Source of the DNA: Promethearchaeum syntrophicum
GTDB taxonomy: Archaea > Asgardarchaeota > Lokiarchaeia > Sigyniarchaeales > Promethearchaeaceae
Direction: 5' to 3'
Length of the DNA: 32,000 bases
NCBI RefSeq assembly: GCF_008000775.2
Contig: NZ_CP042905.2
Span: forward strand, 4,080,001 to 4,112,000
Under the pieces are notes generated by a model that saw nothing but the letters and a program-made list of their open reading frames with translations, had not been told where the DNA came from and made no database searches. Below, one piece after another: positions 7,662 to 28,564 of the stretch; positions within the stretch are counted from its first letter, which is position 1; each line of letters opens with the position of its first letter. Position numbers and translations under genes: made by a program.

Positions 7662-10214
7662 CTATTCTTTTCCTTTATATTTATATCCAAGTAATTCATC
7701 GATCCTTGGGGGTAAGATTTCGCGGCATTCATCGGCGGCTATTTCATCCATATCTTCTCCATGTGCACTCGGATTGCGAAATCTAATTGCGATTTCCTTA
7801 AATGAGTTGACAAAATCTTTATCTTTAAAAATCATGGAGCTGAATTCTTCTAAAAGAAATTGTTTAAAATGTTGTATCAGTGGACTTTTTTTAAGTGTTT
7901 TTTTGCCTCCAGCAAAATTAAGATAATTATTCATATCTCCCAGTGTAATTTTTAATCGTGTTCCAGAATTGGTTCTTAAACTTTGAATTTCCTTTGCAAA
8001 TTTATAAGTTTTATCAAATTTCAAATTAATTTCATCGGACAAAAAATTATCTATATCTTCTAAATGAATATTAAGATATTCGATAAAAGGAAGAAATATT
8101 TTACTTTTTGCTTCTCTCTCAAAGGATTTACAGTAATTATCAATTACTCCATTGTACATTGTATATTTAGTATACTTATATGATTCGTATTGTTGCTCCG
8201 CTTGAGGTAAGACATCTTTACTGAAATCTGTTAGATAATCCCAGAATTTTATTTTTTCTTTTAGCATCGCGATACAATTCATAGAAAAATCTTGGTAGAA
8301 TTCTGCCATGAATAAGGAGAAATCCAGTTTAGAACGATCAGAATCAGATGATTCATTTTGTTTAGAATCAAGATCTTGAATGAAACTGGTAAAATCTGGA
8401 ATTTCATTAATAACTAAAAATTGACCACCTGAAAAACAATAAAGATTTTCACCAGTAATAAGAAAAGCTTTCTTTATCTTATGGTCCTTACACAAATCTA
8501 CATATTTCTGATGAATTTCCTTCAAATCTAAAAATTTATCCCGAATGAAGATAAATGAAATCAACTCTTCATTCTGGAACAACGCTATGTCGATTATTTC
8601 GGTATCTAGAATCAAATCCGACTTACATTCCCAAGATTTCTGTCTGAGAGAATCCATATAAATCATTAACATTTTTCTATAACGTAAATATACCGGGACG
8701 GAGTTATCTGATAAATCTTCTAAACTTGATTGATCCAAAATGGGGATCTGTAAGGATTTGAGATCATCGATAGAAATATGTAATCCTCTCATTGTTTTAT
8801 TAACAAGAGTTGTGAAAATTCGCTTACCAGCTTCAGTATTGAAGAAGATTAAGTTTAAATATGAAGGAAATTGAAGAGAACGGATAACAATAATATTTTC
8901 GGATGCAATACATAGAGGATCTTCTTTGGAGACAATATATGTTTTAAGGGTGAGGTTATTGATGGAATGAATCGCGGGTACTAAGATATCCCCGGGTTTT
9001 AACTGAAAATTTTTGATTTTTTCAACATTCTCCATTTTAATGTATTTTTGAACAATCTCTCGGTTTCTTCTTCTTTCGTTGAATGGTTGAATTCTTCCTT
9101 CTAAAAAGTTTCGAGGTCCCACGACCATTATTTCACCAGAATTTGAGAGAATTTCCGAAATGTTCATTCTATGAATGCCTTGAAAAATTTTAGCAAATTC
9201 CCCTAAATTTTTGTAATTCAGGGATAAAATTGCATTAGATAATACACGATATTTAGGAGAATAATAATTCCAGTCCAATCGATATTGAGGGTGCTTAAAA
9301 ATATCATTAAGAGTAATTTCGATTGAATTTTGATTTTCAAGATCCACATTATTTGATTTTTCATCAAAATTCCTTAAATTAATCATTTTTATTGATGGTT
9401 TTGAAGATTTTTTTTTGATTTCTATCAAAATGAGTTCAAACCTTTGATGTACCCCTTCTATAGAACCATAAGGTAAATTAACGATTTGTTCAATGCAATA
9501 TCCTTCTAATATCTGCTTCCTTGTTTGAGTGAACCTATATCCAACGAGAAAAGATTTACCAACCAAAGCTATCATGGATCCGTTATCTTTTAATAATTTA
9601 AGTAATTTTAGAAAAAAATCGTTTCTTTTCCTTGGAGATTTTATATATGGTTCAGAAATGATATTATAGAAAATTAGATCGAATCTTTGATCTTTTTCTT
9701 TTTTTTGCTCTGGGTTAACAATATTTTCCTTTTTTGAAAAATCCAATAAGGTTCGAATTTCAGGAATCAGTGTGGATTTTTTCCCCCTTACCTTATAAAT
9801 ATCTATCAAATTAATCCCAGGATTCAAGATTTTTACAATACTTCTAAGATATTCATTTTCTTCTGTAGCAAAAATTATTGCATCTGTATCGATCCGTGCT
9901 AGAAATTCCCCATATCCAATATTAGGAATAAAAATATTAGAAAAATGCAATTTAAAGACTCTGATTTGCACTAATTTCCAAATGAGATCAGAAAATTTTG
10001 TAAATAAGATTTCTCTGTGCGGTCGTCTTGCAGTATTGACGATATATTCATTTCCCATTAAATCCAAGAGTTTGTAAAAATTAGAGTAACTGTGGTCTTT
10101 TTCTGACCGTAAAAGGTTGAGCAAAACTTCTAACCTTTTAGTTCGTTCAACTTCAATCTTTTCTTGCACAGTTGTTGTTTTTTCCATCTTTGGTTCTTCC
10201 TTTTTTAATTCCAA
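7662..10214 (-). CDS. Fusion protein: gamma-class DNA methyltransferase-like domain, TaqI_C/HsdS-like target-recognition domain and C-terminal HEPN domain
   Basis: Motif I-like IPNIGYGEFL. Motif IV position reads FDLIFYNIISEPY (SEPY instead of (D/N/S)PP(Y/F/W); codons at 9645-9665). Post-catalytic region DFFLKLLKLLKDNGSMIALVGKSFL ... RKQILEGYCIEQIVNLPYG. TRD-like LGEFAKIFQGI ... LKPGDILVPAI ... ASENIIVIR. HEPN Rx4H motif RFRNPSAHGE (RNPSAH at 7761-7778). The track start at 10214 is a TTG. An in-frame ATG at 10187 (MEKTTT) preceded by AGGAAG may be the real start. Confidence 0.7.
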   Translation of the reverse strand: MELKKEEPKMEKTTTVQEKIEVERTKRLEVLLNLLRSEKDHSYSNFYKLLDLMGNEYIVNTARRPHREILFTKFSDLIWKLVQIRVFKLHFSNIFIPNIGYGEFLARIDTDAIIFATEENEYLRSIVKILNPGINLIDIYKVRGKKSTLIPEIRTLLDFSKKENIVNPEQKKEKDQRFDLIFYNIISEPYIKSPRKRNDFFLKLLKLLKDNGSMIALVGKSFLVGYRFTQTRKQILEGYCIEQIVNLPYGSIEGVHQRFELILIEIKKKSSKPSIKMINLRNFDEKSNNVDLENQNSIEITLNDIFKHPQYRLDWNYYSPKYRVLSNAILSLNYKNLGEFAKIFQGIHRMNISEILSNSGEIMVVGPRNFLEGRIQPFNERRRNREIVQKYIKMENVEKIKNFQLKPGDILVPAIHSINNLTLKTYIVSKEDPLCIASENIIVIRSLQFPSYLNLIFFNTEAGKRIFTTLVNKTMRGLHISIDDLKSLQIPILDQSSLEDLSDNSVPVYLRYRKMLMIYMDSLRQKSWECKSDLILDTEIIDIALFQNEELISFIFIRDKFLDLKEIHQKYVDLCKDHKIKKAFLITGENLYCFSGGQFLVINEIPDFTSFIQDLDSKQNESSDSDRSKLDFSLFMAEFYQDFSMNCIAMLKEKIKFWDYLTDFSKDVLPQAEQQYESYKYTKYTMYNGVIDNYCKSFEREAKSKIFLPFIEYLNIHLEDIDNFLSDEINLKFDKTYKFAKEIQSLRTNSGTRLKITLGDMNNYLNFAGGKKTLKKSPLIQHFKQFLLEEFSSMIFKDKDFVNSFKEIAIRFRNPSAHGEDMDEIAADECREILPPRIDELLGYKYKGKE

Positions 10215-10370
10215 TTTGTTAATAGTACTTTAAATTATCGAAGAATGATACCCTTTTAATTTCTTCATAAAGTCTCTCAATCTATCAAATAAGTAGAAAT
10301 TGGAAGTTGTTAAAATTTTTAGTAGTAGTAATATCTTTTTTTCGGGGTTGTAATAAGTCTTCCTGTGGAT

Positions 10371-10516
10371 TTACAGAATGAAATGACATTTTTCTTCAAA
10401 CCTTTATATATGTTTTCGAAATTTTTACAGAATGAAATGACATGGTTTATATAGGAATGAAATGACATGGTCGCAGATAATCTGCAATTTTTACAGAATG
10501 AGATGATAAATCTGCA
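10371..10516 (+). repeat. Cluster of four copies of the inter-module repeat (core ATGAAATGACA)
   Basis: The identical 19-mer ttacagaatgaaatgacat occurs at 10371-10389 and 10425-10443. A shorter copy, ggaatgaaatgacatgg, is at 10454-10470. A variant, ttacagaatgagatgataaatctgca, is at 10491-10516. The near-palindrome gcagataatctgc is at 10473-10485. Confidence 0.85.
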
Positions 10517-10610: not shown

Positions 10611-11366
10611 TTAATATCCATAAACCACCGTACTATGTTCTGCGTTTCCCACTTTATCCAGTAAATCTCGATCCGAAATTTGCTCCCCATCTTCCACACT
10701 ATAAGCTCTTGCTTTGGTCTTTCTTTTTCTTAAGGTGTCTAATAATTCTAAAGCTTCAAATTCTGATAAAAATCCAATATAAAAATCATCCCCGTTTTTC
10801 TGAGTTTTTAATTCAAAAAATGAATTTGGAAAAGTATCTACAACCCAATTTTTAAATCCTTTCATATTATTGAATTTCTCCTCAAAATAAACTTCTATTG
10901 CTTCAAAATCTGCCCCACTACCAGAATATATATGTTCTACTCGTTCATAGAGATGGAGTGATCTATCTTCTGTTATTGGGAGGTAATCTTCATCTCTATC
11001 TCCGTATACCATTAATTTTAAGATATAACTACCATATTCTTGTCCTAATTCTTTATTCAGGTTTTTGTCTCCATTTAAATATTTCGATGGAACATTCTCT
11101 TGGGAAAATCTAACATAAATAAATAATCGTATTTTATTCTTATCCCAATCATCGTCTTTTTCAAATATTTTTTCAATCCCGAACCTTAAATCTTCAAAGT
11201 TCTTAAACCCATATTTAGCAAAGAATGAATTCACATCTTCAGGAATTTTCCTTTCTGAAAGAAAATATGCATTGATAAGATCTCGATTAGATTCTGTAGT
11301 AATTAAACAGATCAAAGCTTGAATTTCAAATTTTGAGTCGGTAATTAATTCATTATTATTGTTCAT
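10611..11366 (-). CDS. Hypothetical protein, 251 aa
   Basis: Uninterrupted ORF 75 nt downstream of the 343-aa gene on the same strand. The protein is acidic with no recognisable motif. Confidence 0.6.
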   Translation of the reverse strand: MNNNNELITDSKFEIQALICLITTESNRDLINAYFLSERKIPEDVNSFFAKYGFKNFEDLRFGIEKIFEKDDDWDKNKIRLFIYVRFSQENVPSKYLNGDKNLNKELGQEYGSYILKLMVYGDRDEDYLPITEDRSLHLYERVEHIYSGSGADFEAIEVYFEEKFNNMKGFKNWVVDTFPNSFFELKTQKNGDDFYIGFLSEFEALELLDTLRKRKTKARAYSVEDGEQISDRDLLDKVGNAEHSTVVYGY

Positions 11367-11441
11367 TTTTTTCCCTCCATTTTTTTTGTTTTATTTAAAA
11401 AAAAACTTGATGTTTATTGATCATAGTTATTTTTGTTTCAA

Positions 11442-12473
11442 TCATTCTGTTTCACCTTTTGATATCTTGAATCGTAATTGGTACTTGAAAAACACTACAT
11501 CATTGAGGACTGAGAGAATTTCTGAAATTTCAGATTTCCTTTTTAAAAATTGAGCGTTTCTTTTCAAAGTCACCTTATTGTTATTAAAACAATTAGTGGG
11601 GAAAGACATCATTCCATTGTCCACTAAAACTGACTCGAGATTTATAACATCGTCTACAGCCCAATCGGAAGAAGATATCGCCATAAATTTTATATTGGCA
11701 TATTTTCCATTTTTTGATTTTCCATTTTTTAAATTTATGTGATCTCTAAATCTGATACGAGATTTTTCACTCCTGCCAACATAAAATCCATCTATACCAG
11801 ATTCTTTATGATTGCAAATCTTATAGTAGACCGAAGGAAATTGAAAAACTTTCTTATCTAGTTTATCAAATGATCTTTCTGGAAAAAACCATAAATTGAA
11901 TCCCTTAAAAATTATTTTCTTAATAGAACCTTTAAAAACTTTAACCGTGTAATTGAAATCATCATTAATTTCATCCGGACAGAAATTTTCATCATATATG
12001 TATCCTCCTTTAACCTTCCTGATTTTTAAATTTTCGTTTGGAAGGTCTTTATTGTAATTTGCTTGATATTTTTTCTCAGTCCCATTTTCGTTTACATGTG
12101 TCTTTCTATAAAAAAGACTCAATATAGTTGGAGACACAACAATACCGGGAAAATTATATATTATCATTCGAAGGAATAATATAACTTTTTCTTTACATGC
12201 AGGAAAAAAACGTTTAGGGAGAATCCTTCCAATAAAATATTTCATCTTAATGTTATCGAAACGATCTAAAATCTTATGTAATTTTTTACCATGATCTTGA
12301 CAAAAATCATGAAGATCTGAATATGCTGTTGGTTTTTTTACTCTATTATTTTCTCTCCAAATTGATTTTGATAATACTAAACTTGAGAATATTATCACCA
12401 AAATAAATAATTTGTCCAAATTTGAATTGAAGACAAACAGATAATATATTTTTATTATATTTAAGTTAGTCAT
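11442..12473 (-). CDS. Hypothetical protein with an N-terminal hydrophobic helix and a C-terminal GIY-YIG-like nuclease core
   Basis: The N-terminal LFILVIIFSSLVLSKSIW segment looks transmembrane. The C-terminal SVYYKICNHKESGIDGFYVGRSEKSRIRFRDH ... INLESVLV ... CFNNN follows the GIY-(x10)-YIG, R..H, E, N order of GIY-YIG nucleases. The start codon is uncertain. Confidence 0.45.
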   Translation of the reverse strand: MTNLNIIKIYYLFVFNSNLDKLFILVIIFSSLVLSKSIWRENNRVKKPTAYSDLHDFCQDHGKKLHKILDRFDNIKMKYFIGRILPKRFFPACKEKVILFLRMIIYNFPGIVVSPTILSLFYRKTHVNENGTEKKYQANYNKDLPNENLKIRKVKGGYIYDENFCPDEINDDFNYTVKVFKGSIKKIIFKGFNLWFFPERSFDKLDKKVFQFPSVYYKICNHKESGIDGFYVGRSEKSRIRFRDHINLKNGKSKNGKYANIKFMAISSSDWAVDDVINLESVLVDNGMMSFPTNCFNNNKVTLKRNAQFLKRKSEISEILSVLNDVVFFKYQLRFKISKGETE

Positions 12474-12508
12474 TAAAAATTATAAATCAATCCGAATATA
12501 AAAGATTA

Positions 12509-12679
12509 ATTGAAATCCAATTCATATATTTAAGATTTATCAAATCTGAATTCATGTGAAATCCAATTTAGAAATAAAATGAAATCCCAATTAGAGATTT
12601 ATCAAATCCAAATTCATATGAAATTTAATTTAGAAATAAAATGAAATCTCGGAATTTTAAAAATTCGAATTCCAATAAT
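12509..12679. repeat. Tandem and iterated repeats in a divergent intergenic region
   Basis: Two ~55-nt units with a 62-nt period: 12533-12587 (agatttatcaaatctgaattcatgtgaaatccaatttagaaataaaatgaaatcc) and 12595-12649 (agatttatcaaatccaaattcatatgaaatttaatttagaaataaaatgaaatct). The short motif GAAATCC(A)AATT recurs at about 12512, 12558 and 12581. Confidence 0.8.
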
Positions 12680-12740
12680 TTTTTTTTTAAAACTACTCAG
12701 TCTTAAAAACCTCACTTGCCTATCATTTATTGAGAGACAA

Positions 12741-15191
12741 ATGGAACGGAAATATAATCTTCTCAATATGTGGGTGCTATTTCAGCGATATAATATTACC
12801 AGAAATTTCAACACCCGCGGATTTGATCAAAATAAAGTAGAATGTGAAAGATTAACTCGAGAATCTCTATTCTCCATGAAACTCAAACACTCCCCGTTTT
12901 TCAGAGCGAGAATGTATACTCACCTTATGTTCAATGAAGCAACTAAAGACCACAATAGTGATGTTTGGCGTTTTTTGCGGAAAAAAATTAGGAATTTCGC
13001 TAAATTCTATCAAGAAATCAGTCATATACAGAGTGAAGTCGATTACGTTCCGATTTTAGCTGATGAAATGATCAAGTTTTCTCTAAAAGAAGGTTCGAAT
13101 TTTATGACATGGGGAATCGTAATGTTTGACTCCCAAATGGACTTTAGAAAGGACGAACAAGATAGATTCATTAATCTGCTAGGAATAACACAAGAAACTG
13201 GAAATATAGAATTAACTTTCCCGTTAATCTCATGTATACAGGAAAATTTTCTCCATAAATCCATGGATTTTTTAGCCTTCTCTCATCCCGAAGGAGAAGA
13301 TTTCTATGTGGATTATTTCCGTTTATATAAAGCCAAATATATGGTTGAAACATTCCAACCCGTGTTCATGGATTGGCTTTTTTCTCAACAAGGACTAGAA
13401 GATGATTTGAAATCTTTTATATCAATTTTAAATTCTGTTTTTATCATTGCTATTTCCAAACCCTTAGAGCAAATTGTTGAGATTATGGAAGATTTGGGAG
13501 GTATTAAGATAATTGGATCTGAAATTTTCGACTTGATTGAATTAAGCGAAATATTCCTTCTGGAATATTGGAATTCTATTGAGATAGATGATCAGATTGT
13601 ATTATTGAATGAATGGCCTGATTCCACTTTCATGTACGAATTTATCTCAGTAATTCCGCAACTTTTTAATCAAGATTTAGCTTTACAACATCTGGAAAAT
13701 CTTTTAAAAATTATGCAAAGGTACGGTTACCATCAAGAAAATCTCGCTTTTCTAGAAGAAAGTCCAAAGGAATATCAATATTTAAACAAAATGAAAAAGA
13801 TATATGGAAATCCAAATGAAAACTTCAATATTTACGCGAGATTAAATTTAGCTCAAGCTCTGCATTTTGGCGATCTTGCCCATACAGAAAGATTGTTAGA
13901 TTATATTTTAAAATCTCCACCCGATTCAAGGGAAAATCTGAAAATTCTAAATTATTATGCTGCGAATCTTAATTTTTTTCAAGAAAAGTGGTCATCAGCA
14001 GAAATCTTCTTTAGAAAGATTGTTGAACCAGACCAAGAGATGAGTCTCAAGCAGAGAGTAATGGCTACGCTCTGTCTATTAATGGATGGAAACACTGAAA
14101 AATTCTATGGTGAATTTGAGGATATCCTGCATAACCACTCGATCCATGCGAATGCAACCCTACCTGAAATTCGAGATTTGTATTGGGATCTTATCGCAAT
14201 GAAGGGTATTTCTTACATGTTTCAGCTAACAGATATCCTAATAGAGAGGGGAAACATTGACGGACCCAAATTATGCAATGAAATGGGGCAAATATCTGCA
14301 GATCTGGGTTATTTTAATGAAGCAATTAAATTTTATAATCGAGGGTTCGAATTTAAAATTTCCGATATATTTAGAGGAAATCTCTACAACAATATAGGCT
14401 CGGTTCTTAACCAGCAAGGAAAATTGGATGAGTCTATTGAAAAGTTCCAACAAGCCGTTGCTCTTAATCCGAATAACGCTCGAGTATGGTTAAATATGTC
14501 CAAATCTTATGGTTTCAAAGGAGAACCGATGAAAGCGTTAGAATGTATAAAGCATACTCAAAAAAATCTCAATTTAGATTCTTCCTCGCTTGCAGAATTT
14601 ATTTGGAGTAACTATGAATCCAATAGGATTGGATTTTTAGCTCATTCCATCATCAATTATAATGCAATTGAATTTTCCGATATTAAAACACAGTTTCGGT
14701 TAGCAGACCGTTTATTTTTTAAATCCTTTCCCCAAGATCCCGACCTACAAGAATTAGCTACATCAATCTTCATGCATTATGGGAATGGAATAGAACTACT
14801 TTTCCATTATAAATTAGGGGCTGCATTTACGAATAAGATTAAAGAGTTGCATGGGGATGATTTGAAAAAATTACGAAATTATAAATTAAAAAAGAACATC
14901 CCAAAAGAATTGCACAATTTGCTATATGAAAATCACGTTAGCCATAGTAATTGGGGAAAAATCATTGAAAATTTTCTCAGGACACCTATAGAAGAGAGAT
15001 TTATACATTATACATCATGTTTTGAGGATTTCAAAGAAGACGAGTTAAAATTGTTAAAGAACGCAGTTGAATTCGCGGGAAAATGGAGAAATCCGAGTGA
15101 TCATGGAGAAATATTAAATTATGATGTTGTTAAGAAATACCGATCACAGTTAATTTTTCTCATTAATTCAAGTCTTGAAATCTTTAGGTGA
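12741..15191 (+). CDS. All-helical repeat/TPR protein with a C-terminal HEPN domain
   Basis: TPR-type repeats: GNLYNNIGSVLNQQGKLDESIEKFQQAVALNPNNARVWLNMSKSYGFKGEPMKALECIKH. The C-terminal HEPN Rx4H motif is AGKWRNPSDHGE (RNPSDH at 15087-15104). The tail is clearly paralogous to that of the 850-aa protein. I saw no Walker A motif. Confidence 0.7.
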   Translation: MERKYNLLNMWVLFQRYNITRNFNTRGFDQNKVECERLTRESLFSMKLKHSPFFRARMYTHLMFNEATKDHNSDVWRFLRKKIRNFAKFYQEISHIQSEVDYVPILADEMIKFSLKEGSNFMTWGIVMFDSQMDFRKDEQDRFINLLGITQETGNIELTFPLISCIQENFLHKSMDFLAFSHPEGEDFYVDYFRLYKAKYMVETFQPVFMDWLFSQQGLEDDLKSFISILNSVFIIAISKPLEQIVEIMEDLGGIKIIGSEIFDLIELSEIFLLEYWNSIEIDDQIVLLNEWPDSTFMYEFISVIPQLFNQDLALQHLENLLKIMQRYGYHQENLAFLEESPKEYQYLNKMKKIYGNPNENFNIYARLNLAQALHFGDLAHTERLLDYILKSPPDSRENLKILNYYAANLNFFQEKWSSAEIFFRKIVEPDQEMSLKQRVMATLCLLMDGNTEKFYGEFEDILHNHSIHANATLPEIRDLYWDLIAMKGISYMFQLTDILIERGNIDGPKLCNEMGQISADLGYFNEAIKFYNRGFEFKISDIFRGNLYNNIGSVLNQQGKLDESIEKFQQAVALNPNNARVWLNMSKSYGFKGEPMKALECIKHTQKNLNLDSSSLAEFIWSNYESNRIGFLAHSIINYNAIEFSDIKTQFRLADRLFFKSFPQDPDLQELATSIFMHYGNGIELLFHYKLGAAFTNKIKELHGDDLKKLRNYKLKKNIPKELHNLLYENHVSHSNWGKIIENFLRTPIEERFIHYTSCFEDFKEDELKLLKNAVEFAGKWRNPSDHGEILNYDVVKKYRSQLIFLINSSLEIFR

Positions 15192-15202
15192 GATTTTACT
15201 CA

Positions 15203-15212
15203 TTTTTTTTTT
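15203..15212 (+). terminator. Oligo-T tract (T10) 12 nt after the stop codon; possible archaeal-type terminator
   Basis: tgagattttactcaTTTTTTTTTTaac immediately follows the stop at 15189-15191. T-runs are common in AT-rich DNA, so this is weak evidence. Confidence 0.3.
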
Positions 15213-15347
15213 AACTAAGGTCACCTAGGGGTCAGGTTTTTTACCTTCATCTTTTTAACTATTCAGATCAAAAATTACACAATTAACTTTAAACGTTTTT
15301 GACAAATATATAATAAATAAGTAAATATAAGAAAGGATAAAAAAATT

Positions 15348-16640
15348 ATGAGTGATGATACACCAAGATATTGGTTTTCATATAAAGGGCGTATTCTGGA
15401 AGCGATCACGCTAAATGGAGAAAAAACTTGGGAAGAATTACAAGAATTTACTGGATTTTCTCCTACAATCTTAAATAAAATTTTGTCCGAGCTTTATTCA
15501 TTGAAAATTCTATCAAAAACAGAAAATGACACTTATCGAATCAGTTATGAAGTATTTTTAGAATATAGAGATTATTTAAAAGAATTAGACAATACGGTCT
15601 CAATTTCTCAAAATAGAGAATTTGTAGTAGACTCAGAAATCGACGATAATGAACAAAAACTTGAGAAGATGTTTGAAGGCAAATTAAACCAATTTAATAT
15701 TTTCTTAAATCAAAAAATAAACGAATTTCAAAGTAAAATGAAAGCAATGGAGAAAGAAATGAATGAAGAAAAACCGATAAATGATGCTACGGGCAAAAAT
15801 ATCATAATAAATTCACTTATTGATTCTCAACTTGGAAAATGGATGATAATTAGGAGATTAGGAGAAGGCGGACAAGCAATTACGTTTATTACTATTGATG
15901 TTGGAGATGCAGAGAAAAAAGAATATGTAATGAAATTTTTTATTCATCGAGAAGATCTTGATCAAGACATGAAGAGATTCAAAAAAGAAATTAAGGCATT
16001 AGAAATGTCAACTGGTCATGAAAATATCGTAGAAATTATTGATTCTCATTTTGGGAGACCAGAAGTAGATTTATATTATATAATGGAAAAATGCGATAAT
16101 GATCTGAAACAGCAAATAAAGAATATGAACGGGTCTAATTATTTATTCAAAATTTTTGATTTCTATTTAGATATAATCAAAGCTGTTGATTTTTTACATT
16201 CCGCAGATATAATCCACCGAGATTTGAAACCAGCGAACATTTTAATAAAGGATAATAAAATCAAAGTGGGGGATTTTGGTATATGTTTTATCCCTGGAAC
16301 TGATCGTGACACCTTCACTAATGAACAAGTTGGACCGAAATTTTATTGCGCTCCTGAATTACTAAATAAACGGGCAGAAAAGATTAGTTTTAAAGCAGAT
16401 TATTATTCATTAGGAAAAATTTTATATTATTTATTATCAGATGGTGAAAATCTTGACGCAGAATACTACGATTTGCCTAATTATAGTTTATCCAAGAAAT
16501 ATAACAATTCTAAATATGATTATTTCAATGAATTCTTCAAAAAAACAATTAATGCCCACATAGAAGAACGATATAGCACTATTGATGAACTAGTTAATGG
16601 ATTTCATAGATGTAAAAACAATTTTCTAAATCCGGAATAA
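15348..16640 (+). CDS. Ser/Thr protein kinase (Hanks-type) with an N-terminal winged-helix-like domain
   Basis: Gly-rich loop LGEGGQAITF, VAIK-like EYVMKF, catalytic loop IIHRDLKPANILI, DFG (VGDFGIC) and APE (YCAPELL). The N-terminal ~75 aa (WEELQEFTGFSPTILNKILSELYSLKILSKTENDTYRISYE) look like a wHTH, followed by a coiled-coil linker. Confidence 0.9.
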   Translation: MSDDTPRYWFSYKGRILEAITLNGEKTWEELQEFTGFSPTILNKILSELYSLKILSKTENDTYRISYEVFLEYRDYLKELDNTVSISQNREFVVDSEIDDNEQKLEKMFEGKLNQFNIFLNQKINEFQSKMKAMEKEMNEEKPINDATGKNIIINSLIDSQLGKWMIIRRLGEGGQAITFITIDVGDAEKKEYVMKFFIHREDLDQDMKRFKKEIKALEMSTGHENIVEIIDSHFGRPEVDLYYIMEKCDNDLKQQIKNMNGSNYLFKIFDFYLDIIKAVDFLHSADIIHRDLKPANILIKDNKIKVGDFGICFIPGTDRDTFTNEQVGPKFYCAPELLNKRAEKISFKADYYSLGKILYYLLSDGENLDAEYYDLPNYSLSKKYNNSKYDYFNEFFKKTINAHIEERYSTIDELVNGFHRCKNNFLNPE

Positions 16641-16685
16641 ATCAAAATTCAATGGTTATAGGAAATTCGAAAATCTGGAAATATT

Positions 16686-16744
16686 CCAGAATGAAATGAT
16701 AAATCTGCATATTTTTAACTCAAAATTTCGGAATTGAAATGATA
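16686..16744 (+). repeat. Two further copies of the inter-module repeat, lying between convergent gene ends
   Basis: ccagaatgaaatgataaatctgcat at 16686-16710 nearly matches cagaatgagatgataaatctgca at 10493-10516. cggaattgaaatgata is at 16729-16744. Confidence 0.7.
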
Positions 16745-16940
16745 TTATTATTAATTAAGAACTCTATATCTAATTAAGATGCAAGAAGATAAAACATTTG
16801 AGAACGCTTGCAAAGATTTATGGAAAGAAATTAGAGATTAAGAATAGATATTTAAAAAAGGATCGAGAATTAATCCAAATTTTAGTATATGGAATGATAT
16901 TATTAAAATTTCCAAAAAGTGAATAATTAGGATTAATAAA

Positions 16941-18608
16941 TCATAGTGAAATTTGTTTAATACCAGACTGGGCAAAAATATCATAAATTTCTTTGATTCT
17001 ATTAATAGATTGTAGTGAATCTTCTCTCTTATCACAATTAGTAAAATAAATTTTTGATTTTGCTCTTGATAAAGCAACAAAAAAGGTACACAATTCAGAA
17101 AAACGATTTCTTTGATAACTAAAAAAAGCATTATCTTCTAAGCCAATAAATATTACTACTTCAAATTCCAAACCCTTACATTTATGAACAGTCATTATTG
17201 GAATAATATCTTTTCCCAAGAGAGATTCTAATGATTTACTCCAATCTTTCTGTATTTGATATTGTTGCCAAAAATAAAAGTTAAATTTATCGATAACTTG
17301 TTTAAGATAATTTCTACTTAAATATTGTGGATATATTGTTGATAACTCAGCAAATCCAAAAATATTGATTAAAGGTCTATATATTTTTGAGAGATCTTGT
17401 ATAGTTTCAATCCTTAAAAATTTTTTTTGTAAAGCTTTTGATAAATTATAGATTATCAAATTTAATTTTTGATATCTTCCTAATTTAGTATCTTCGTTGA
17501 AACCTTTAATATAGATAAGTAAGTTGTAAATATTATTCCAATCTTCTATGGATTGCTCTTTCAAAGATAAACGAATGAAACTAACAACTAATTTTATTAT
17601 TGGTTCACTTAAAAATTCCTGATAAATATTTTCAAAACGTGCAGGTATTCCAAGAATATCAAGTTTCTGGATGATTTTTCCCCTATAAATATCAATTTTA
17701 TTGCGAGTATCCTTTCGACGATAGATAATGCATATTTGTTCTGGAGATATTCCCTTGTCAATATGCTTTTTTATTTCCAAGGCAATTATCTCAGCTTCCC
17801 TTTCTGAATTTGTAAAATGAAAAATTTTACAATCTCCCTCATCATTTTTTTGATATTCTGCTCTAATTTTTATATTTGGATCTAACTTTTCAGCAAAGAA
17901 ACTCTGAATATATTGTAGTTTTTTCTTAGATCGGTAGTTGATTAATAATGGAATTCTTTTTGCCCCAAAATCTCGTTCAAATTTATCAAATATTTTTTTT
18001 TCTGCTCCTGCAAATATCATAATTGTTTGTTTAATATCCCCAACAGCAGTCAATATTGTGGATGATCCCATAAAAGATTCCTTAATAAAGTTATATTGCG
18101 TTGCAGTTGTATCTTGAAATTCATCAAGTAGAACATATTTGTAAGTTTGTTTAATTGCATTATGGAGATGTTTATTATTTTTTATTAACCAAGTGGCTAA
18201 ATTTTGGATACGTTTAAAACTAAGAATATTTTTATTGTTATTCAATAAATTTTTTTTTTTGTCCTGAATTTTATAATTTTTAATTGGTCTGATATCTTCG
18301 GGTAAAGCTAACCTAAATCTATCCAAAATACCTTTTGTAAATGCATCTATTGTTAATGAATCAAATCTAGAAATTAACTCGATACCACATCTTAGTAAAG
18401 CTCTATATTCTAAATTTGTTGCAGAATCGCGTTTAAAAGAAATTGCTAAAATACGATATGGGAAAGGGCATGATTTAGTTTGTAATAAGAAAGAAACTCT
18501 TTGAGCAAGTATCTCTGTTTTTCCAGATCCTGGACCAGCTAATACACTAATATTTTCATTGCTTTTCACAATTTCTAAAGCATTAGAAACCAAGACCATT
18601 TTATCCAT
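16941..18608 (-). CDS. gajB: Gabija GajB, UvrD/PcrA-like SF1 helicase
   Basis: Walker A VLAGPGSGKTE, motif II VLLDEFQDT, C-terminal TVHKCKGLEFEVV and ALSRAKSK. It sits 34 nt downstream of an OLD-family gene, which is the Gabija gene order. Confidence 0.8.
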   Translation of the reverse strand: MDKMVLVSNALEIVKSNENISVLAGPGSGKTEILAQRVSFLLQTKSCPFPYRILAISFKRDSATNLEYRALLRCGIELISRFDSLTIDAFTKGILDRFRLALPEDIRPIKNYKIQDKKKNLLNNNKNILSFKRIQNLATWLIKNNKHLHNAIKQTYKYVLLDEFQDTTATQYNFIKESFMGSSTILTAVGDIKQTIMIFAGAEKKIFDKFERDFGAKRIPLLINYRSKKKLQYIQSFFAEKLDPNIKIRAEYQKNDEGDCKIFHFTNSEREAEIIALEIKKHIDKGISPEQICIIYRRKDTRNKIDIYRGKIIQKLDILGIPARFENIYQEFLSEPIIKLVVSFIRLSLKEQSIEDWNNIYNLLIYIKGFNEDTKLGRYQKLNLIIYNLSKALQKKFLRIETIQDLSKIYRPLINIFGFAELSTIYPQYLSRNYLKQVIDKFNFYFWQQYQIQKDWSKSLESLLGKDIIPIMTVHKCKGLEFEVVIFIGLEDNAFFSYQRNRFSELCTFFVALSRAKSKIYFTNCDKREDSLQSINRIKEIYDIFAQSGIKQISL

Positions 18609-18642
18609 AGGTACCCAATTTTCTCTTTTAATGCAAATTTTA

Positions 18643-20622
18643 CTACTCCTCCAGAAGATTTTTACTTTTTTGAATTATTTCCTTTAGTATTGGAGAAATA
18701 TTTTGATTAAGTTGTTCATTTGAAATTTCACTCAAGAAGAGATAATGGATCAGTGGTTTATTATTGTTAAAGAGATATTTATGCCAAGCTAACAACTCTC
18801 CTTTTTCAGAAAACACACTTTCATTTAAAATAAAATCATCTTTGAAAGGAGTTTTAACATAATGTTCAAGTTGATCTTCATAATCTGGTTCCTCAATGTG
18901 TCTTAGTACATTGGGACCTCGCCCTTTTAATAATTTATATTGTTCTAAAAAAGATTCAATCATTAAAAAATCAAAATCAAGAGGGTATGAGAAAAAAATA
19001 TTTTTCCTTTCAAGTTGATTTCTGAAAATATCATCTGTAATATCTATTGAGTCAATAATTTGATCAATATTTGATAAATTTATATCATATTCTCCAATTT
19101 GGAAATTTGGATTAATTTCTAATAATTCTTTGCATATATATTTTAAAGGATTTTGGATTTTTTTATATATATCAAAATCGAGTAGAGTTATATGTGGAAT
19201 CATCAAATCATTGAGTAATTTCCAAAAATAATTAACAAATTTACCTCCTAATGGTATTATCGAAATGTAATGATTGTCAATTAAAATATCTTCAACCTGA
19301 AATAATCGGGGAAATACAATTTTCTCACTATCACCTTCAACTAATATAATTAATTTAGAGAAATACATTTCTGGAAAGAATTGAACTCCTTGTTTTACAA
19401 ATTTAAATGCCTCGTCACTTTCTGAGGGTAATAATATCTTCCTTATAGATGTTGTATTTGTTGTTAAATCTAATCGAAAATGCCTTATTGTTTCTGGATT
19501 AATTCTTTTAAGAATTGAAGGTGAATGCGAAGTAATTAATATTTGAGCGATCTCTAATTTTGATGTTTCTTGCAAGTTTTGAATGGTTTTTCCAAGCAAA
19601 TGAGGTGCTAAATGATTCTCAGGTTCTTCGATTGCTACTATCGTGAGATAAGGTGGTGTATAATTAGTATCAGAGAATAAATCTTCTGCCTCGTTCAATA
19701 TTTTACTTTCGATCTCTAATAAGGAACAAACTAAGGATATGTAGAATAGTGATTTCATTCCATCACTAATTTGTTCAATATCATAATTAATTTCATCTGG
19801 ACTAGGTTTAAATGATATCTCAATTTTTTTTAAAATATCATCTAGTTTCCCTGTAGCAAAACTGAAATTTGTATTGGAGAAATATTTAATATCATTATAT
19901 TTTTTCCATTCTTGATTAATAATTTCTTCTATTTTTCCTATTCCTTGATTCTCAACTATTTTTCCATTTAAAACTTTCATTTCATCTATAATTGATTTTT
20001 TCAAACTTTCACTCCATTTTAAATATCGGAATAATCTCCATATTATTGTTCCAGTTGAATTTTTTATCTGGTTTGAAGGACTTCTCAATGCTGGAACATA
20101 TATCATTTGAATAATCCCCAATTCTTTCATCTTAACCCAATTTGTAGTTTCAGATTGTTGTTCCATTTCTGGTGTTTTAATATAGCGATAAATCTGGGTG
20201 ATATTACCTTCAATATTCATATTACGCTCCCAAACTGCTTCTAATCTTATTCGAAAATATGGTGGTGAATTATCATCACGAATTATTAATTGGTTGAAAT
20301 AGGCAGCTTTAGCCTTTTTTTGAGATTCTTCTAAATCAATTTCAGGAAATTCTATAAATACTTCAATACTCAGTCTTAATTCATCAAAATCTTCGAAATT
20401 TTTACCTCTAGGAATATGAAAATCCGCTTTATGAATTTGTCGAAGAGATTGAGTAATACCAAAAATTTTTTGTAATGCAAGGAGCATTGCTGTCTTACCA
20501 GAGTTATTAGCACCGATTAGCACCGTACTATTATCTAATGATGTTTCAATGCCTTCAGGTCCAAAACTTTGGAAATTTTTTATAATTATTTTTGTAATTT
20601 TCATTTCAAAATCTTTCTCCAA
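18643..20622 (-). CDS. gajA: Gabija GajA, OLD-family ABC-type ATPase plus TOPRIM nuclease
   Basis: N-terminus MKITKIIIKNFQSFG ... LIGANNSGKTAMLLAL (Walker A). ISDGMKSLFY is signature-like. Walker B region VAIEEPENHLAPH and H-loop ITSHSP. TOPRIM LIILVEGDSEKIVFP. The track start at 20622 is a TTG. The ATG at 20604 (MKITKI), preceded by GGAG, is the more likely start. Confidence 0.85.
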   Translation of the reverse strand: MEKDFEMKITKIIIKNFQSFGPEGIETSLDNSTVLIGANNSGKTAMLLALQKIFGITQSLRQIHKADFHIPRGKNFEDFDELRLSIEVFIEFPEIDLEESQKKAKAAYFNQLIIRDDNSPPYFRIRLEAVWERNMNIEGNITQIYRYIKTPEMEQQSETTNWVKMKELGIIQMIYVPALRSPSNQIKNSTGTIIWRLFRYLKWSESLKKSIIDEMKVLNGKIVENQGIGKIEEIINQEWKKYNDIKYFSNTNFSFATGKLDDILKKIEISFKPSPDEINYDIEQISDGMKSLFYISLVCSLLEIESKILNEAEDLFSDTNYTPPYLTIVAIEEPENHLAPHLLGKTIQNLQETSKLEIAQILITSHSPSILKRINPETIRHFRLDLTTNTTSIRKILLPSESDEAFKFVKQGVQFFPEMYFSKLIILVEGDSEKIVFPRLFQVEDILIDNHYISIIPLGGKFVNYFWKLLNDLMIPHITLLDFDIYKKIQNPLKYICKELLEINPNFQIGEYDINLSNIDQIIDSIDITDDIFRNQLERKNIFFSYPLDFDFLMIESFLEQYKLLKGRGPNVLRHIEEPDYEDQLEHYVKTPFKDDFILNESVFSEKGELLAWHKYLFNNNKPLIHYLFLSEISNEQLNQNISPILKEIIQKSKNLLEE

Positions 20623-21491: not shown

Positions 21492-22358
21492 TTATGTCAT
21501 TTCATGTTTAAGTTGCTTGAAATAATCTCCATTCCTAGACATGTAATGATTATAGGAAAAATTAATTAACTTTAATCCTTCTTTTAATCCATTTGATAAA
21601 ATAGGTGCACTATATTTCAACTCATTTTTATAATTTTGAATAAATCGCCCATCAGGTGAGATAATACAATATGATTGATTTAAAATGTTCTCATTTTCAA
21701 ATATTGGATTCAATCCTTTATGATATTGTAAGAAAAAATCAATTTGGGTTTCAGATGGAACTTGAGATTGCTTGAAAAATTGATTATTAATTGATGGAAT
21801 TTGATGAACTATCAAAATTTTCCATCTCACAGGTTTTAATAGTGTTATGAGTGAATAAAAATCATCATTCCAGTTGATAGAAGTTAAAACGGTATTAATT
21901 TTTAAAGGAATATTAAAAGATTTAATTAATTTATTGGCTTTTTCTATTGTTTCTAAATGGGAATATCTTCCATTTTTACTATGATTTAAGGTTCTACCTA
22001 AAATTAATTCCTTTTTTTCACATGGGGAATCTAAACTTAGCCCTATTAAATCCATATCTTTATGACAATCATTGAGAAATTTCTTTTTTATACCAGTTCC
22101 GTTTGAAATGATTGAAGTGAAAATTCCATAGTTTTTGGTATGTTGGATTAAATTGCTCAAATATGGAATTAATGTAGGTTCACCACCAGCAAAATTTAGT
22201 TTCATACATCCTCCTTCAGCAAGCATATCAATGATTTTCATCCATTGAGACTCATTTAATTCACTTCCGAGTGATCTATTCCGAGCAAAACAAAATTTAC
22301 ATCGATAATTACATCGATTGGTGATGTGCAAATTAACGGATTCAATTTTATTTTCCAT
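21492..22358 (-). CDS. Prokaryotic viperin (pVip), radical SAM enzyme
   Basis: It aligns by eye along its whole length with human viperin: SVNLHITNRCNYRCKFCF vs SVNYHFTRQCNYKCGFCF; KLNFAGGEPTL vs KINFSGGEPFL; SIISNGT vs SIVSNGS; LKPVRWKIL vs LNPVRWKVF; QSYCIISPDGRF vs DSYLILDEYMRF; SRNGDY vs KRGGKY. Confidence 0.9.
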   Translation of the reverse strand: MENKIESVNLHITNRCNYRCKFCFARNRSLGSELNESQWMKIIDMLAEGGCMKLNFAGGEPTLIPYLSNLIQHTKNYGIFTSIISNGTGIKKKFLNDCHKDMDLIGLSLDSPCEKKELILGRTLNHSKNGRYSHLETIEKANKLIKSFNIPLKINTVLTSINWNDDFYSLITLLKPVRWKILIVHQIPSINNQFFKQSQVPSETQIDFFLQYHKGLNPIFENENILNQSYCIISPDGRFIQNYKNELKYSAPILSNGLKEGLKLINFSYNHYMSRNGDYFKQLKHEMT

Positions 22359-22360
22359 AT

Positions 22361-22834
22361 CTAAACCTTTCCAGTTATTAAATCATTATATTGCGATTGA
22401 AAATCTTGCAAGTATTGTGCATTTTCTTGAAATTGAAAATCTTCTTCTATATTTTGTGTAAAAAATAGATTATGATCAATGATCATAAATCCAATGCGAT
22501 GGTTTTTTAACCAATTTTTTGATATAAATGAATATTCCCTGAATAAATCATTAGAAATTATCAAACATTGAAGCTCAGTGGCACATTTCAAAATAAAAAC
22601 ATCCGCAGCTACACCTGCTGGAGCTTCAAAAATTAATTTGGAAACTAAATATTCGGTTTTATATCTTTTTCGATCGTCTATTTGATGATATAACGAATTA
22701 TCGGCGATTCCGATAATTTCATAATCTTTTGGAATTGAATTGAATAAAATATCAATGTATCCAATTTTAGGCTTCCCATTTCTTTTGTTGAAACAGGCAA
22801 TATTAGAGATATCACATACAATAATTTTTTTCAT
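22361..22834 (-). CDS. NYN / Zc3h12a-like (PIN-fold) ribonuclease domain protein
   Basis: KKIIVCDISNIAC (compare VVIDGSNVA), AADVFILKCATE (compare YDDRFIVKLA) and LIISNDLFREY (compare IVVSNDTYRDL) place acidic residues where the Zc3h12a NYN catalytic residues lie. Its stop is 2 nt from the viperin start. Confidence 0.6.
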   Translation of the reverse strand: MKKIIVCDISNIACFNKRNGKPKIGYIDILFNSIPKDYEIIGIADNSLYHQIDDRKRYKTEYLVSKLIFEAPAGVAADVFILKCATELQCLIISNDLFREYSFISKNWLKNHRIGFMIIDHNLFFTQNIEEDFQFQENAQYLQDFQSQYNDLITGKV

Positions 22835-23263: not shown

Positions 23264-24022
23264 TTATGTTCTGATTAAATAATTTGCGAGAATAGTACCC
23301 ATTCGCGTTAAGCGCAATTCAAAAGCTCGATTATCTTCAACATTATGGGATCGAATTAGCAATTTATGCTTTTCAAGTTTTTTTACATGATAACTTAGAT
23401 TTTGCCCTTTCATTTTCGTGGTTTTACTATCTCGCCAATATTTTCTCCATTTTGGCTCATTTATTTCAACGGCTAATTCACTTTGATTCAAAATTTCAGG
23501 TTTTTTTTTATTTTTCATATTACTATTTAGAACAAATAAAATAACTTTCTGAACGTTTGTAATATCCGATATTGGCACAGATGGCATTTCAATATCAATG
23601 AATGTATTCCTTTCATTAAGATTATGGTTAAATTTATCGGGTGCTTTAATATATTGAATACGTGCGCCAATAAGGTTGGCTCCCATAAATGCACCAAGGG
23701 ACATAACTTTCGTTCCCCCTGTAACATTTACAATAAAATCAACCTTTAGATCTTTATGAAGACTATGAATTTCCAGAACAGAGTTAAGAACACTCTCATA
23801 ATCAAAAGGATCTATTATTAAATAATTTACGGTATCTTTAGGAAAAAAAAAATGAGATTCAATCTCTGACTTTATAGTAGATTCATATTTCTCCGTTAAA
23901 AAATAGAATTTATAAATGCGATCTAAACGAATTCCACGAAGTGCAGCAATAATAGGATCGAGATTTGCTCTTTTTTCCTTTTTATTGATACCAAGAGTTG
24001 AAATATAAACTATTTTTTCCAT
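23264..24022 (-). CDS. csa3: Csa3-like transcriptional regulator (N-terminal CARF/Rossmann-like domain plus C-terminal wHTH)
   Basis: The N-terminal strand IVYISTLG and the CARF-type loop FIVNVTGGTKVMSLGAFMGANLIG are present. The C-terminal QNLSYHVKKLEKHKLLIRSHNVEDNRAFELRLTRMG is MarR/wHTH-like. It is divergent from the CARF-helicase-PLD operon across a 73-bp spacer. Confidence 0.65.
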   Translation of the reverse strand: MEKIVYISTLGINKKEKRANLDPIIAALRGIRLDRIYKFYFLTEKYESTIKSEIESHFFFPKDTVNYLIIDPFDYESVLNSVLEIHSLHKDLKVDFIVNVTGGTKVMSLGAFMGANLIGARIQYIKAPDKFNHNLNERNTFIDIEMPSVPISDITNVQKVILFVLNSNMKNKKKPEILNQSELAVEINEPKWRKYWRDSKTTKMKGQNLSYHVKKLEKHKLLIRSHNVEDNRAFELRLTRMGTILANYLIRT

Positions 24023-24095
24023 AAATTAATCAAGTTATTTCTTTTACAATCAAATAAAAACTTTAAGTATTTATTAATTATAATTATGAAATAGA

Positions 24096-24725
24096 GTGAA
24101 TCATGATCAAGAAAACAGGATTTTCTTTGAAAGTTCGATTTCAATGGGGGTATTTTTAACGTCTGTGCAAATTTTAGTCGTAGGGAGATCTCACGCTCAT
24201 ATCTTGAAAGTATTGAAACTAAAACACCCAGATAAAGTCATTTTGATTGTATCAAAAAAATTGAAAGATCAAAATGAAGAATTATACCTAAACTTGAAAA
24301 AAAAACAAAACAATTTGGAAATTATTCATGTGAACCCATTTCACCGTGATTTTTTACCTCAAATGATAACTCATTATATTCATATTTACCAAAAACTAAA
24401 GGTAGTTAATCCTAGTGCAGAGGTCCAAATTGGTTTAACAGGAGGGACGAACCTCATGGCTATCGCAGCAGGGATCTCTGCTATGTTATTAGGTATTGAA
24501 GCACATTATTTTGTTAAAGGGAAAGTAAAGCCATTGATATGGAATTTGAAAAATGATTTAGCAGATTTTATACTATCTAATTCTTCAAATTTTTATTTCC
24601 TTCAAACAGAAGATAATACAAGAGATAAAAATAAAATGTCAAAACTTAATTCTGAATATTCCTCTGAAGGAAAGGAGAAATCATTATTGAATTTTCAAGA
24701 AGAAAAAAGAGGGAGGACAATTTAA
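24096..24725 (+). CDS. Stand-alone CARF-like (Csa3 N-domain-like) protein
   Basis: VQILVVGRSHAHILKVL ... DKVILIVS ... VQIGLTGGTNLMAIAAGISAMLLG mirrors the strand and GGT(K/N)-loop layout of the neighbouring Csa3-like N-domain. The track start is a GTG, with an alternative in-frame ATG at 24144. The stop overlaps the helicase start (TAATG at 24723-24727). Confidence 0.5.
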   Translation: MNHDQENRIFFESSISMGVFLTSVQILVVGRSHAHILKVLKLKHPDKVILIVSKKLKDQNEELYLNLKKKQNNLEIIHVNPFHRDFLPQMITHYIHIYQKLKVVNPSAEVQIGLTGGTNLMAIAAGISAMLLGIEAHYFVKGKVKPLIWNLKNDLADFILSNSSNFYFLQTEDNTRDKNKMSKLNSEYSSEGKEKSLLNFQEEKRGRTI

Positions 24726-27385: not shown

Positions 27386-27402
27386 AAGATGGAATAAAAA
27401 AA

Positions 27403-28563: not shown

Positions 28564-28564
28564 G

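Follow-up and report, generated by a model that had tools for sequence, protein, structure and literature searches.

Two neighbouring genes on the same strand of the 32,000-nucleotide (nt) stretch of DNA analysed here (the window) raise the question of whether they act together. The upstream gene encodes a protein with tetratricopeptide repeats (TPR) and a HEPN-type C-terminus, and the downstream gene encodes a Hanks-type Ser/Thr kinase with a winged helix-turn-helix (wHTH)-like N-terminus. In the first-pass annotation, made from the sequence alone, they were proposed as a two-component sensor/effector pair, with the caveat that they might equally be independent units. The results described below point to the caveat: the two genes are probably independent single-gene modules, adjacent by chance in a defence island, and not a dedicated pair. 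Domain content, motif conservation, the absence of conserved linkage and the cassette boundaries were all observed.

The features on which the argument depends are listed here with their window coordinates (aa, amino acids; ORF, open reading frame; AF2, AlphaFold2).

12693..12740, plus strand: conserved 48-nt region upstream of the TPR-HEPN gene, start of the blastn block, likely promoter-proximal
12741..15191, plus strand: TPR-HEPN ORF, 816 aa (ORF list)
12741..13940, plus strand: helical N-terminal region of the TPR-HEPN protein, ~aa 1-400, no recognisable domain
13939..14585, plus strand: TPR/helical-repeat array, ~aa 400-615 (Pfam TPR and AF2)
14658..15188, plus strand: probable C-terminal Swt1/Abi2-like HEPN domain, ~aa 640-816 (relatives, AF2, family consensus)
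15087..15104, plus strand: Rx4H motif R783-N-P-S-D-H788, predicted catalytic (family conservation, AF2 position)
15186..15212, plus strand: 7-bp hairpin overlapping the stop codon, then T10, terminator-like (RNA fold)
15348..16640, plus strand: wHTH-like N-terminal domain, linker and Hanks-type Ser/Thr kinase, 430 aa (Pfam, motifs)
15348..15638, plus strand: N-terminal domain of the kinase protein, aa 1-97, winged-helix-like and apparently swappable

Linkage and cassette boundaries

Both ORFs were found on the same strand with a gap of 156 nt, as had been claimed, and the T10 tract between them was located at 15203-15212. Conservation of this arrangement was followed in seven contexts of TPR-HEPN relatives (L001, L002, L007, L008, L014, L015 and L016) and in seven contigs with kinase relatives (L003/L004, L005/L006, L011/L012 and L013), the latter representing five distinct contexts. 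The TPR-HEPN loci were composed as follows.

L001: relative P0002 (81% identity, full length, tblastn); OLD-like ATPase upstream; AAA_15 ATPase, then ThsB-type TIR genes downstream
L002: relative with 32% identity; 249-aa and 208-aa genes without known identity downstream
L015: relative P0126; 1033-aa TIR-like protein downstream
L016: relative P0125; overlapping 474-aa gene of no known identity downstream
L014: P0124, a frameshifted TPR-HEPN copy; kinase absent
L007 and L008: ~940-aa relatives in two Heimdallarchaeota metagenome-assembled genomes (MAGs); monocistronic, with convergent genes next

As determined by tblastn, the kinase was present in none of the seven TPR-HEPN loci, the sole match being its N-terminal domain on a PLDc_2 protein of L001, and the TPR-HEPN gene was present in none of the seven contigs with kinase relatives. 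When the proteins flanking the seven TPR-HEPN loci were compared, no mutual homology was found. Assembly GCA_030612265.1 carries homologues of both genes in unlinked positions (P0126 on contig 80, P0006 on contig 143). A weaker case is JGI metagenome sample 3300037245, whose contigs 3 and 324 carry P0002 and P0005, respectively, since a sample is not one genome. The 81%-identical orthologue keeps all motif residues without a kinase neighbour. Conserved adjacency was thus observed in 0/7 and 0/7 loci, the outcome that the first-pass annotation had itself named as refuting the pair. Because the homologues were never neighbours in the related loci examined, and the homology of the cassette ends at the T-tract, the proposed kinase/HEPN sensor-effector pair is left unsupported.

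At the nucleotide level, blastn aligned window positions 12693-15210 with positions 9767-12281 of L001 at 86.8% identity, while the sequence farther upstream was unrelated. Homology with L001 stops at 15210, within the T-tract. The hairpin that precedes this tract has a fold energy of -4.8 kcal/mol (z -2.0), and its counterpart in L001, followed by T7, reaches -7.2 kcal/mol. A simple terminator scan did not call the hairpin and T10, the G-C pairs of the stem being too few. In archaea, an oligo-T run alone is a termination signal. Since the L001 homology spans 12693-15210 and the hairpin with its T-run is conserved, the TPR-HEPN gene appears to be a cassette complete in itself, equipped with an upstream region and a terminator-like end. 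AT-rich, TATA-like boxes upstream of 15348 could act as a separate promoter for the kinase, given an archaeal source. These edges, together with the loci, bear out the earlier caveat about independent units.

Upstream of the conserved block, at 12498-12648, a 62-bp direct repeat was noted in some 2.5 copies, the two full ones being 88% identical. The repeat sits in the divergent intergenic region between a 343-aa gene and the TPR-HEPN gene, outside the part conserved in L001, and could be an operator or an iteron-like array.

The TPR-HEPN protein and its C-terminal domain

The TPR-HEPN ORF has an alternative start at M10 (12768), which would yield 807 aa and is the choice of gene callers elsewhere. 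Pfam recognised TPR units and no other family in the protein; the units lie at aa 548-603 (TPR_8, E 3.7e-11; TPR_1 and TPR_2, with E values of 1e-10 to 1e-11). In the N-terminal ~400 aa there was no Pfam match and AF2 confidence was low. No Walker A motif was present in the sequence, and no nucleoside triphosphatase (NTPase) family was matched in Pfam, PADLOC or NCBIfam. Two statements of the first-pass annotation, that the 816-aa protein contains TPR units and that it has no NTPase motif, therefore hold. A full-length AF2 model built from three sequences was poor (predicted local distance difference test, pLDDT, 50) and was kept out of the fold search; its confidence was confined to the helical repeat region, ~aa 400-610. 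Profile matches to TPR proteins of the PDB all fell inside aa 501-620.

The identity of the C-terminal domain was approached through its motif. The sequence KWRNPSDHGE, on which a HEPN assignment had been based earlier, is present at aa 781-790 and corresponds to nt 15081-15110, so that the start given before, 15084, was off by 3 nt. In three close homologues, with identities down to 32%, residues R783, N784, S786, H788, G789 and E790 are invariant, giving the pattern RN[PL]S[DN]HGE. A profile of aa 620-816 was then searched against 1.84 billion representative proteins. It defined a domain family of 74 proteins, mostly the C-termini of ~950-aa TPR proteins. Among 56 aligned C-terminal domains, R783 was retained in 54/56, N784 in 47/56 and H788 in 56/56; N809 was also kept in 56/56, and the position of E685 was occupied by E or D in 56/56. 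Such conservation is far in excess of what a chance Rx4H motif would show.

The AF2 model of the C-terminal domain, based on a 38-sequence alignment, was all-helical (pLDDT 94.1; predicted template-modelling score, pTM, 0.88). In this model the motif sits where H147-164 ends and ahead of H175-196, the last two long helices, and core helices 2 and 3 are separated by a helical insert. None of the top 30 Foldseek matches in the PDB was significant; they included the HEPN toxins 6m6u, 6m6w, 7ae6, 7ae9 and 8xeh, which are HepT-type and HEPN-MNT entries, and one Csx1-Crn2 chain, these with TM-scores <=0.43.

The majority consensus of the family matched exactly two Pfam families, HEPN_Swt1 (E 1.9e-5) and Abi_2 (E 2.3e-4). 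When the 38 members were scanned singly, weak matches were obtained to HEPN_Swt1 in four, Abi_2 in two, HEPN_Apea in two, Cthe2314 in one and RiboL-PSP in one; HEPN families, with these ten weak matches, were alone in recurring among the members. Profile searches of PDB sequences with profiles A1, A3 and A4 returned TPR proteins or noise and nothing else, and a word-indexed search with the family profile A4 returned two short proteins only. On the motif and sequence evidence, to which the fold comparison contributed no significant match, the C-terminus very probably holds a divergent HEPN domain of the Swt1/Abi2 clade. The HEPN-type C-terminus claimed before is thus upheld by motif conservation and by the Pfam matches of the consensus. 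For these TPR proteins the assignment is new, and current Pfam models miss the domain.

Close relatives of the whole protein were very few among 5.8 billion proteins, namely P0002 (81%) and P0003 (32%); P0125 and P0126 were further close homologues with ~32% identity. Together with the fragment P0124, these four form a small and separate clade. The close-clade profile A1 had no match in 185,579 reference genomes, in JGI metagenomes or in viral contigs. The wider-family profile A6 detected two loci in reference genomes, both in Heimdallarchaeota MAGs, one TPR-only match in metagenomes and none in viral contigs. Similarity between the N-terminus of the window protein and the N-termini of the ~950-aa TPR family was weak and collinear.

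Among known systems, the nearest match was the PADLOC profile PDLC02907, named only 'TPR' and 864 positions long, to which window aa 514-810 aligned at positions 582-861 (E 2.2e-14). P0142, a representative of the ~950-aa TPR family, matched the whole of PDLC02907 (E 3e-95) and has the HEPN-like domain in common with the window protein. Both therefore combine a TPR array with a C-terminal RNxxxH domain. The window protein differs in being shorter (816 aa vs ~950), with an N-terminal 500 aa of weak, collinear similarity. No defence system served by PDLC02907 was found in the literature on retrons, P4 hotspots, embedded systems or DefensePredictor.

With the Abi2/Swt1 HEPN clade (PMC3710099; PF18731, PF07751) the C-terminal domain shares RNxxxH and, in its AF2 model, an all-helical make-up and a motif before the last helix, and the clade likewise shows sensor-like fusions, including TPR, and defence and restriction-modification neighbourhoods. 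It differs in that its likeness to the clade is visible only at the level of the family consensus, just under the Pfam cut-off. TPR fusions of HEPN have already been catalogued in the Abi2/Swt1 clade and in the LA2681 and C6orf70 families (Anantharaman et al. 2013, PMC3710099). The catalogued STAND-TPR-HEPN architectures contain a STAND NTPase, whereas the window protein has none. A sensor of the STAND/Avs type was ruled out for this protein, there being no Walker A motif and no NTPase family match.

The first gene is accordingly described as a stand-alone TPR-HEPN gene, whose product would run from a helical N-terminus through a TPR array to a HEPN domain that keeps its RNxxxH site intact. 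HEPN domains are normally active as dimers. We infer a defence role for either gene and, for the TPR-HEPN protein, a trigger and a ribonuclease (RNase) activity. A viral protein or peptide is the probable trigger; bound by the N-terminal and TPR part, it would cause release or dimerisation of the HEPN domain, which would then cleave RNA, so that growth or infection stops. The TPR-HEPN protein is most likely an NTPase-free, single-chain sensor-RNase. A defence context is supported by the adjacent Gabija system, by the PADLOC profile for the TPR family and by the genes that adjoin relatives, which include OLD-like ATPases, ThsB-type TIRs and PLD nucleases, as well as the DNA methylases and the Schlafen-AlbA2 protein found, with a transglutaminase-like protein, near the relatives in L007 and L008.

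The kinase gene and the rival readings

In the kinase protein, a Pkinase match was obtained at aa 167-370 (Pfam, E 1.3e-36). The motifs GEGGQA, K196, HRDLKPAN (290-297), DFG (309-311) and APE (335-337) were all found and do not vary among relatives, so that the kinase looks active by its sequence. Earlier it had been described as an intact Hanks kinase with HRDLKPAN, DFG and APE, which is correct, and as having a winged-helix-like N-terminus, for which the support was weak: the N-terminus matched TFIIE_alpha at E 1e-3, below the Pfam cut-off, and HTH_24 at E 0.03.

The N-terminal domain seems to be a swappable module carried by differing effector domains. Its aa 4-77 align with the N-terminus of the PLDc_2 nuclease in L001 at 31% identity (E 2e-11), and P0005 and P0006, the kinase homologues nearest to the window protein, lack it. 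Their kinase cores are 58-77% identical to that of the window protein, and the extensions differ: P0006 has an unrelated N-terminus and P0005 a 370-aa C-terminal extension. Module swapping across effectors has been described for Abi-type N-terminal domains (PMC3710099). DNA homology of the kinase gene with L003/L004 (79.5%, blastn) begins inside the gene, at 15749 or about aa 134, past the N-terminal domain. The kinase gene thus has the appearance of a mosaic, assembled separately from the TPR-HEPN cassette.

A more distant kinase relative, P0007 (L013 1938-4387, 38% identity), ends in leucine-rich repeats (LRR) and overlaps by 4 nt a 403-aa ORF made up entirely of LRR. Either one kinase-LRR protein has been split or frameshifted here, or the two ORFs form an operon.

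In PADLOC, the kinase matched many PD-T4-6 profiles (down to E 3.6e-36), Stk2 (E 1.9e-22) and also MkoA, and its best match was mad6 (E 2.1e-38), over the kinase domain only. It resembles the single-gene kinases PD-T4-6 and Stk2 in having a Hanks domain with all catalytic motifs and in its defence-island location, and differs in that the profile matches are limited to the kinase domain and leave the wHTH-like N-terminus outside. MAD6 of the methylation-associated defence system (MADS) was ruled out, the score with NF047741 being 96.8 bits against a cut-off of 460 and the window having no mad gene set. Mokosh MkoA was also ruled out, with a match to the kinase domain only and the helicase part absent. 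The most economical reading of these profile and motif matches is a stand-alone sensor-kinase of the PD-T4-6/Stk2 kind. The second gene would accordingly be a modular kinase, with a Hanks core fused here to a wHTH-like module and to other modules in its relatives, and most likely acts alone, like single-gene defence kinases.

Against two independent modules, other readings of the locus were weighed. A dedicated two-gene system, with the HEPN RNase gated by phosphorylation or vice versa, is suggested by the common strand, the 156-nt gap and the defence-type domains in both proteins. It also has precedents in the AMPylation of HepT by MntA, HepT being among the weak PDB structure matches, and in the kinase-HEPN coupling of Ire1/RNase L (PMC3710099). 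However, MntA-HepT is a conserved operon with covalent control of a HEPN toxin, and Ire1/RNase L carry kinase and KEN domain on one polypeptide, whereas here there are two genes whose linkage is not conserved. With co-occurrence in none of the 7 + 7 related loci, both homologues present without linkage in one assembly and on separate contigs in a metagenome sample, cassette homology that stops at the conserved hairpin and T-run between the genes, and an 81%-identical orthologue that retains every motif residue where the kinase neighbour is absent, such a system is considered very unlikely. A newly formed kinase-gated HEPN module, restricted to this lineage and still at its origin in a probably archaeal (Asgard-like) defence island, is if anything slightly less probable; in it, a kinase recently placed downstream would now cross-talk with the TPR-HEPN protein, and read-through could, for example, couple expression or phosphorylation could tune the HEPN RNase or the TPR sensor. 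The possibility that the wHTH-kinase is a DNA-binding regulator of the expression or activity of island genes such as TPR-HEPN or Gabija, rather than an effector or part of a fixed system, draws on its winged-helix-like N-terminus and on the position of the gene between TPR-HEPN and Gabija. It is likewise regarded as very unlikely: the same N-terminal domain occurs elsewhere on a PLD nuclease, which fits an effector-attached sensor better than a transcription factor, the kinase relatives lie in unrelated neighbourhoods, and the wHTH assignment is below the Pfam threshold.

A different objection concerns the TPR-HEPN protein alone. Instead of an immune RNase it might be a scaffold, or a factor that binds or processes RNA, with a HEPN-like domain that binds RNA without cutting it, its place in the island being incidental. 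In its favour, some Swt1-type HEPN domains are regarded as binders without activity (PMC3710099), no domain was recognised in the N-terminal 400 aa, and the window protein is without a significant Pfam HEPN or structural match. Nevertheless, nearly all family members retain the predicted catalytic residues R, N and H; the family is rare and patchy (74 of 1.84 billion proteins, the close clade in 0 of 185,579 reference genomes, the wider family in two Heimdallarchaeota MAGs); its neighbours are variable defence and restriction-modification genes; and PADLOC contains it. This reading is judged unlikely. Several observations do weigh against the preferred account of two independent modules, one of them a HEPN RNase. 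The sample of contexts is small, with seven TPR-HEPN loci and five distinct kinase contexts, and genes on the same strand 156 nt apart may be co-transcribed by read-through. Foldseek found no significant match to the C-terminal model in the PDB (none with E <1) or BFVD, and the window TPR-HEPN protein itself had no Pfam HEPN match, even at E 10. The HEPN_Swt1 score of the family consensus, 25.4 bits over 106/115 profile positions, was just below the Pfam cut-off of 27.5.

The surrounding island and significance

By its gene content, the window as a whole appears to be a defence island. The main features around the two genes are given here.

7662..10214, minus strand: 850-aa methylase-like/specificity-domain-like protein, with weak N6_Mtase, mad2 and Type I specificity matches
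10611-12473, minus strand: two genes, 251 aa and 343 aa, divergent from TPR-HEPN
16941..20622, minus strand: Gabija, with GajB at 16941-18608 (E 1e-182) and GajA at 18643-20622 (E 2.9e-206) by PADLOC, convergent with the kinase gene
24725-30121, plus strand: three-gene cluster of an 886-aa AAA_11/AAA_12 superfamily 1 (SF1) helicase, a 386-aa protein and a 518-aa PLDc_2 protein

The C-terminus of the 850-aa protein (RFRNPSAHGE) is homologous to that of the TPR-HEPN protein. When family profile A4 was compared by hhalign with the last 245 aa of the 850-aa protein, a match with 96.3% probability (E 1.7e-9) over 158 columns was obtained. One predicted effector-type domain thus appears to serve two different scaffolds in the island. 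The methylase motifs of the 850-aa protein look degenerate by eye, for instance NIISEPY for NPPY. In the 2013 survey of HEPN proteins (PMC3710099), the HEPN domains linked to restriction-modification systems were said to be fused to nucleases, helicases and ATPases and not to methylases.

The 343-aa protein had marginal matches to GIY-YIG (E 0.046) and PADLOC PDC-S14 (E 0.02), and neither it nor the 251-aa gene is conserved beside TPR-HEPN relatives. The left end of the window is occupied by a 1802-aa DEAD/MZB helicase. To judge by the GC content of ~30%, the TFIIE-alpha-like and HFX_2341 domains and the Heimdallarchaeota relatives, the DNA probably comes from an archaeon. Beyond Gabija, at 21492-22834 (minus strand) and 23264-24725, a radical-SAM protein is directly followed by an NYN (Zc3h12a-like) RNase, and near them are two divergent CARF_Card1/HFX_2341_N proteins, one with a MarR-like HTH. 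No CRISPR locus is in view here, and the genes may be defence genes linked to cyclic nucleotides. The helicase/386-aa/PLD cluster has a counterpart of similar gene sizes and gene order next to a kinase relative in L011 (3584-8554, minus strand) and may be a conserved helicase-PLD defence module.

An intergenic element of ~150 bp was found twice in the window (10363-10516 and 16669-16837) and three times in the related contig L003 (1870-2038, 3335-3471 and 16387-16547). Identity between the window and L003 copies was 91-95%, exceeding that of the common coding DNA (79-87%). The element holds ACAGAATGAAATGAYA repeats, for which five window matches at <=2 mismatches were counted against 0.19 expected; one match lies ~300 nt upstream of gajA. 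The element could be a common regulatory module or a small mobile element. A 41-bp direct repeat within it (10476-10516 and 16669-16709) was considered as the attachment-site (att)-like ends of a 6-kb insert. That idea was rejected on two grounds: the repeats are part of an intergenic element that resembles a promoter, and their second copy continues into a 5' gene remnant. That remnant, at 16740-16837 just past the kinase, comprises the promoter region and the first ~20 codons (ATGCAAGAAGATAAAACATTTGAG...) of a truncated gene that is intact in L003 (3414-4928, 504 aa), and it points to cassette turnover at this position.

TPR-HEPN fusions, the PADLOC-listed TPR family and single-gene defence kinases are kinds already known, and the two genes are variations on these themes. 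What the analysis contributes is the removal of a tempting "kinase-gated HEPN" system from the list of candidates as unsupported, a demonstration that nucleotide-level cassette boundaries can settle such pairing questions, and the definition of a small, rare TPR-HEPN clade together with its wider family of ~950-aa proteins. If the RNase and defence functions are true, a single-protein, NTPase-free sensor-RNase would join the known immune repertoire, and, if the origin is archaeal as well, that repertoire might extend to archaea.

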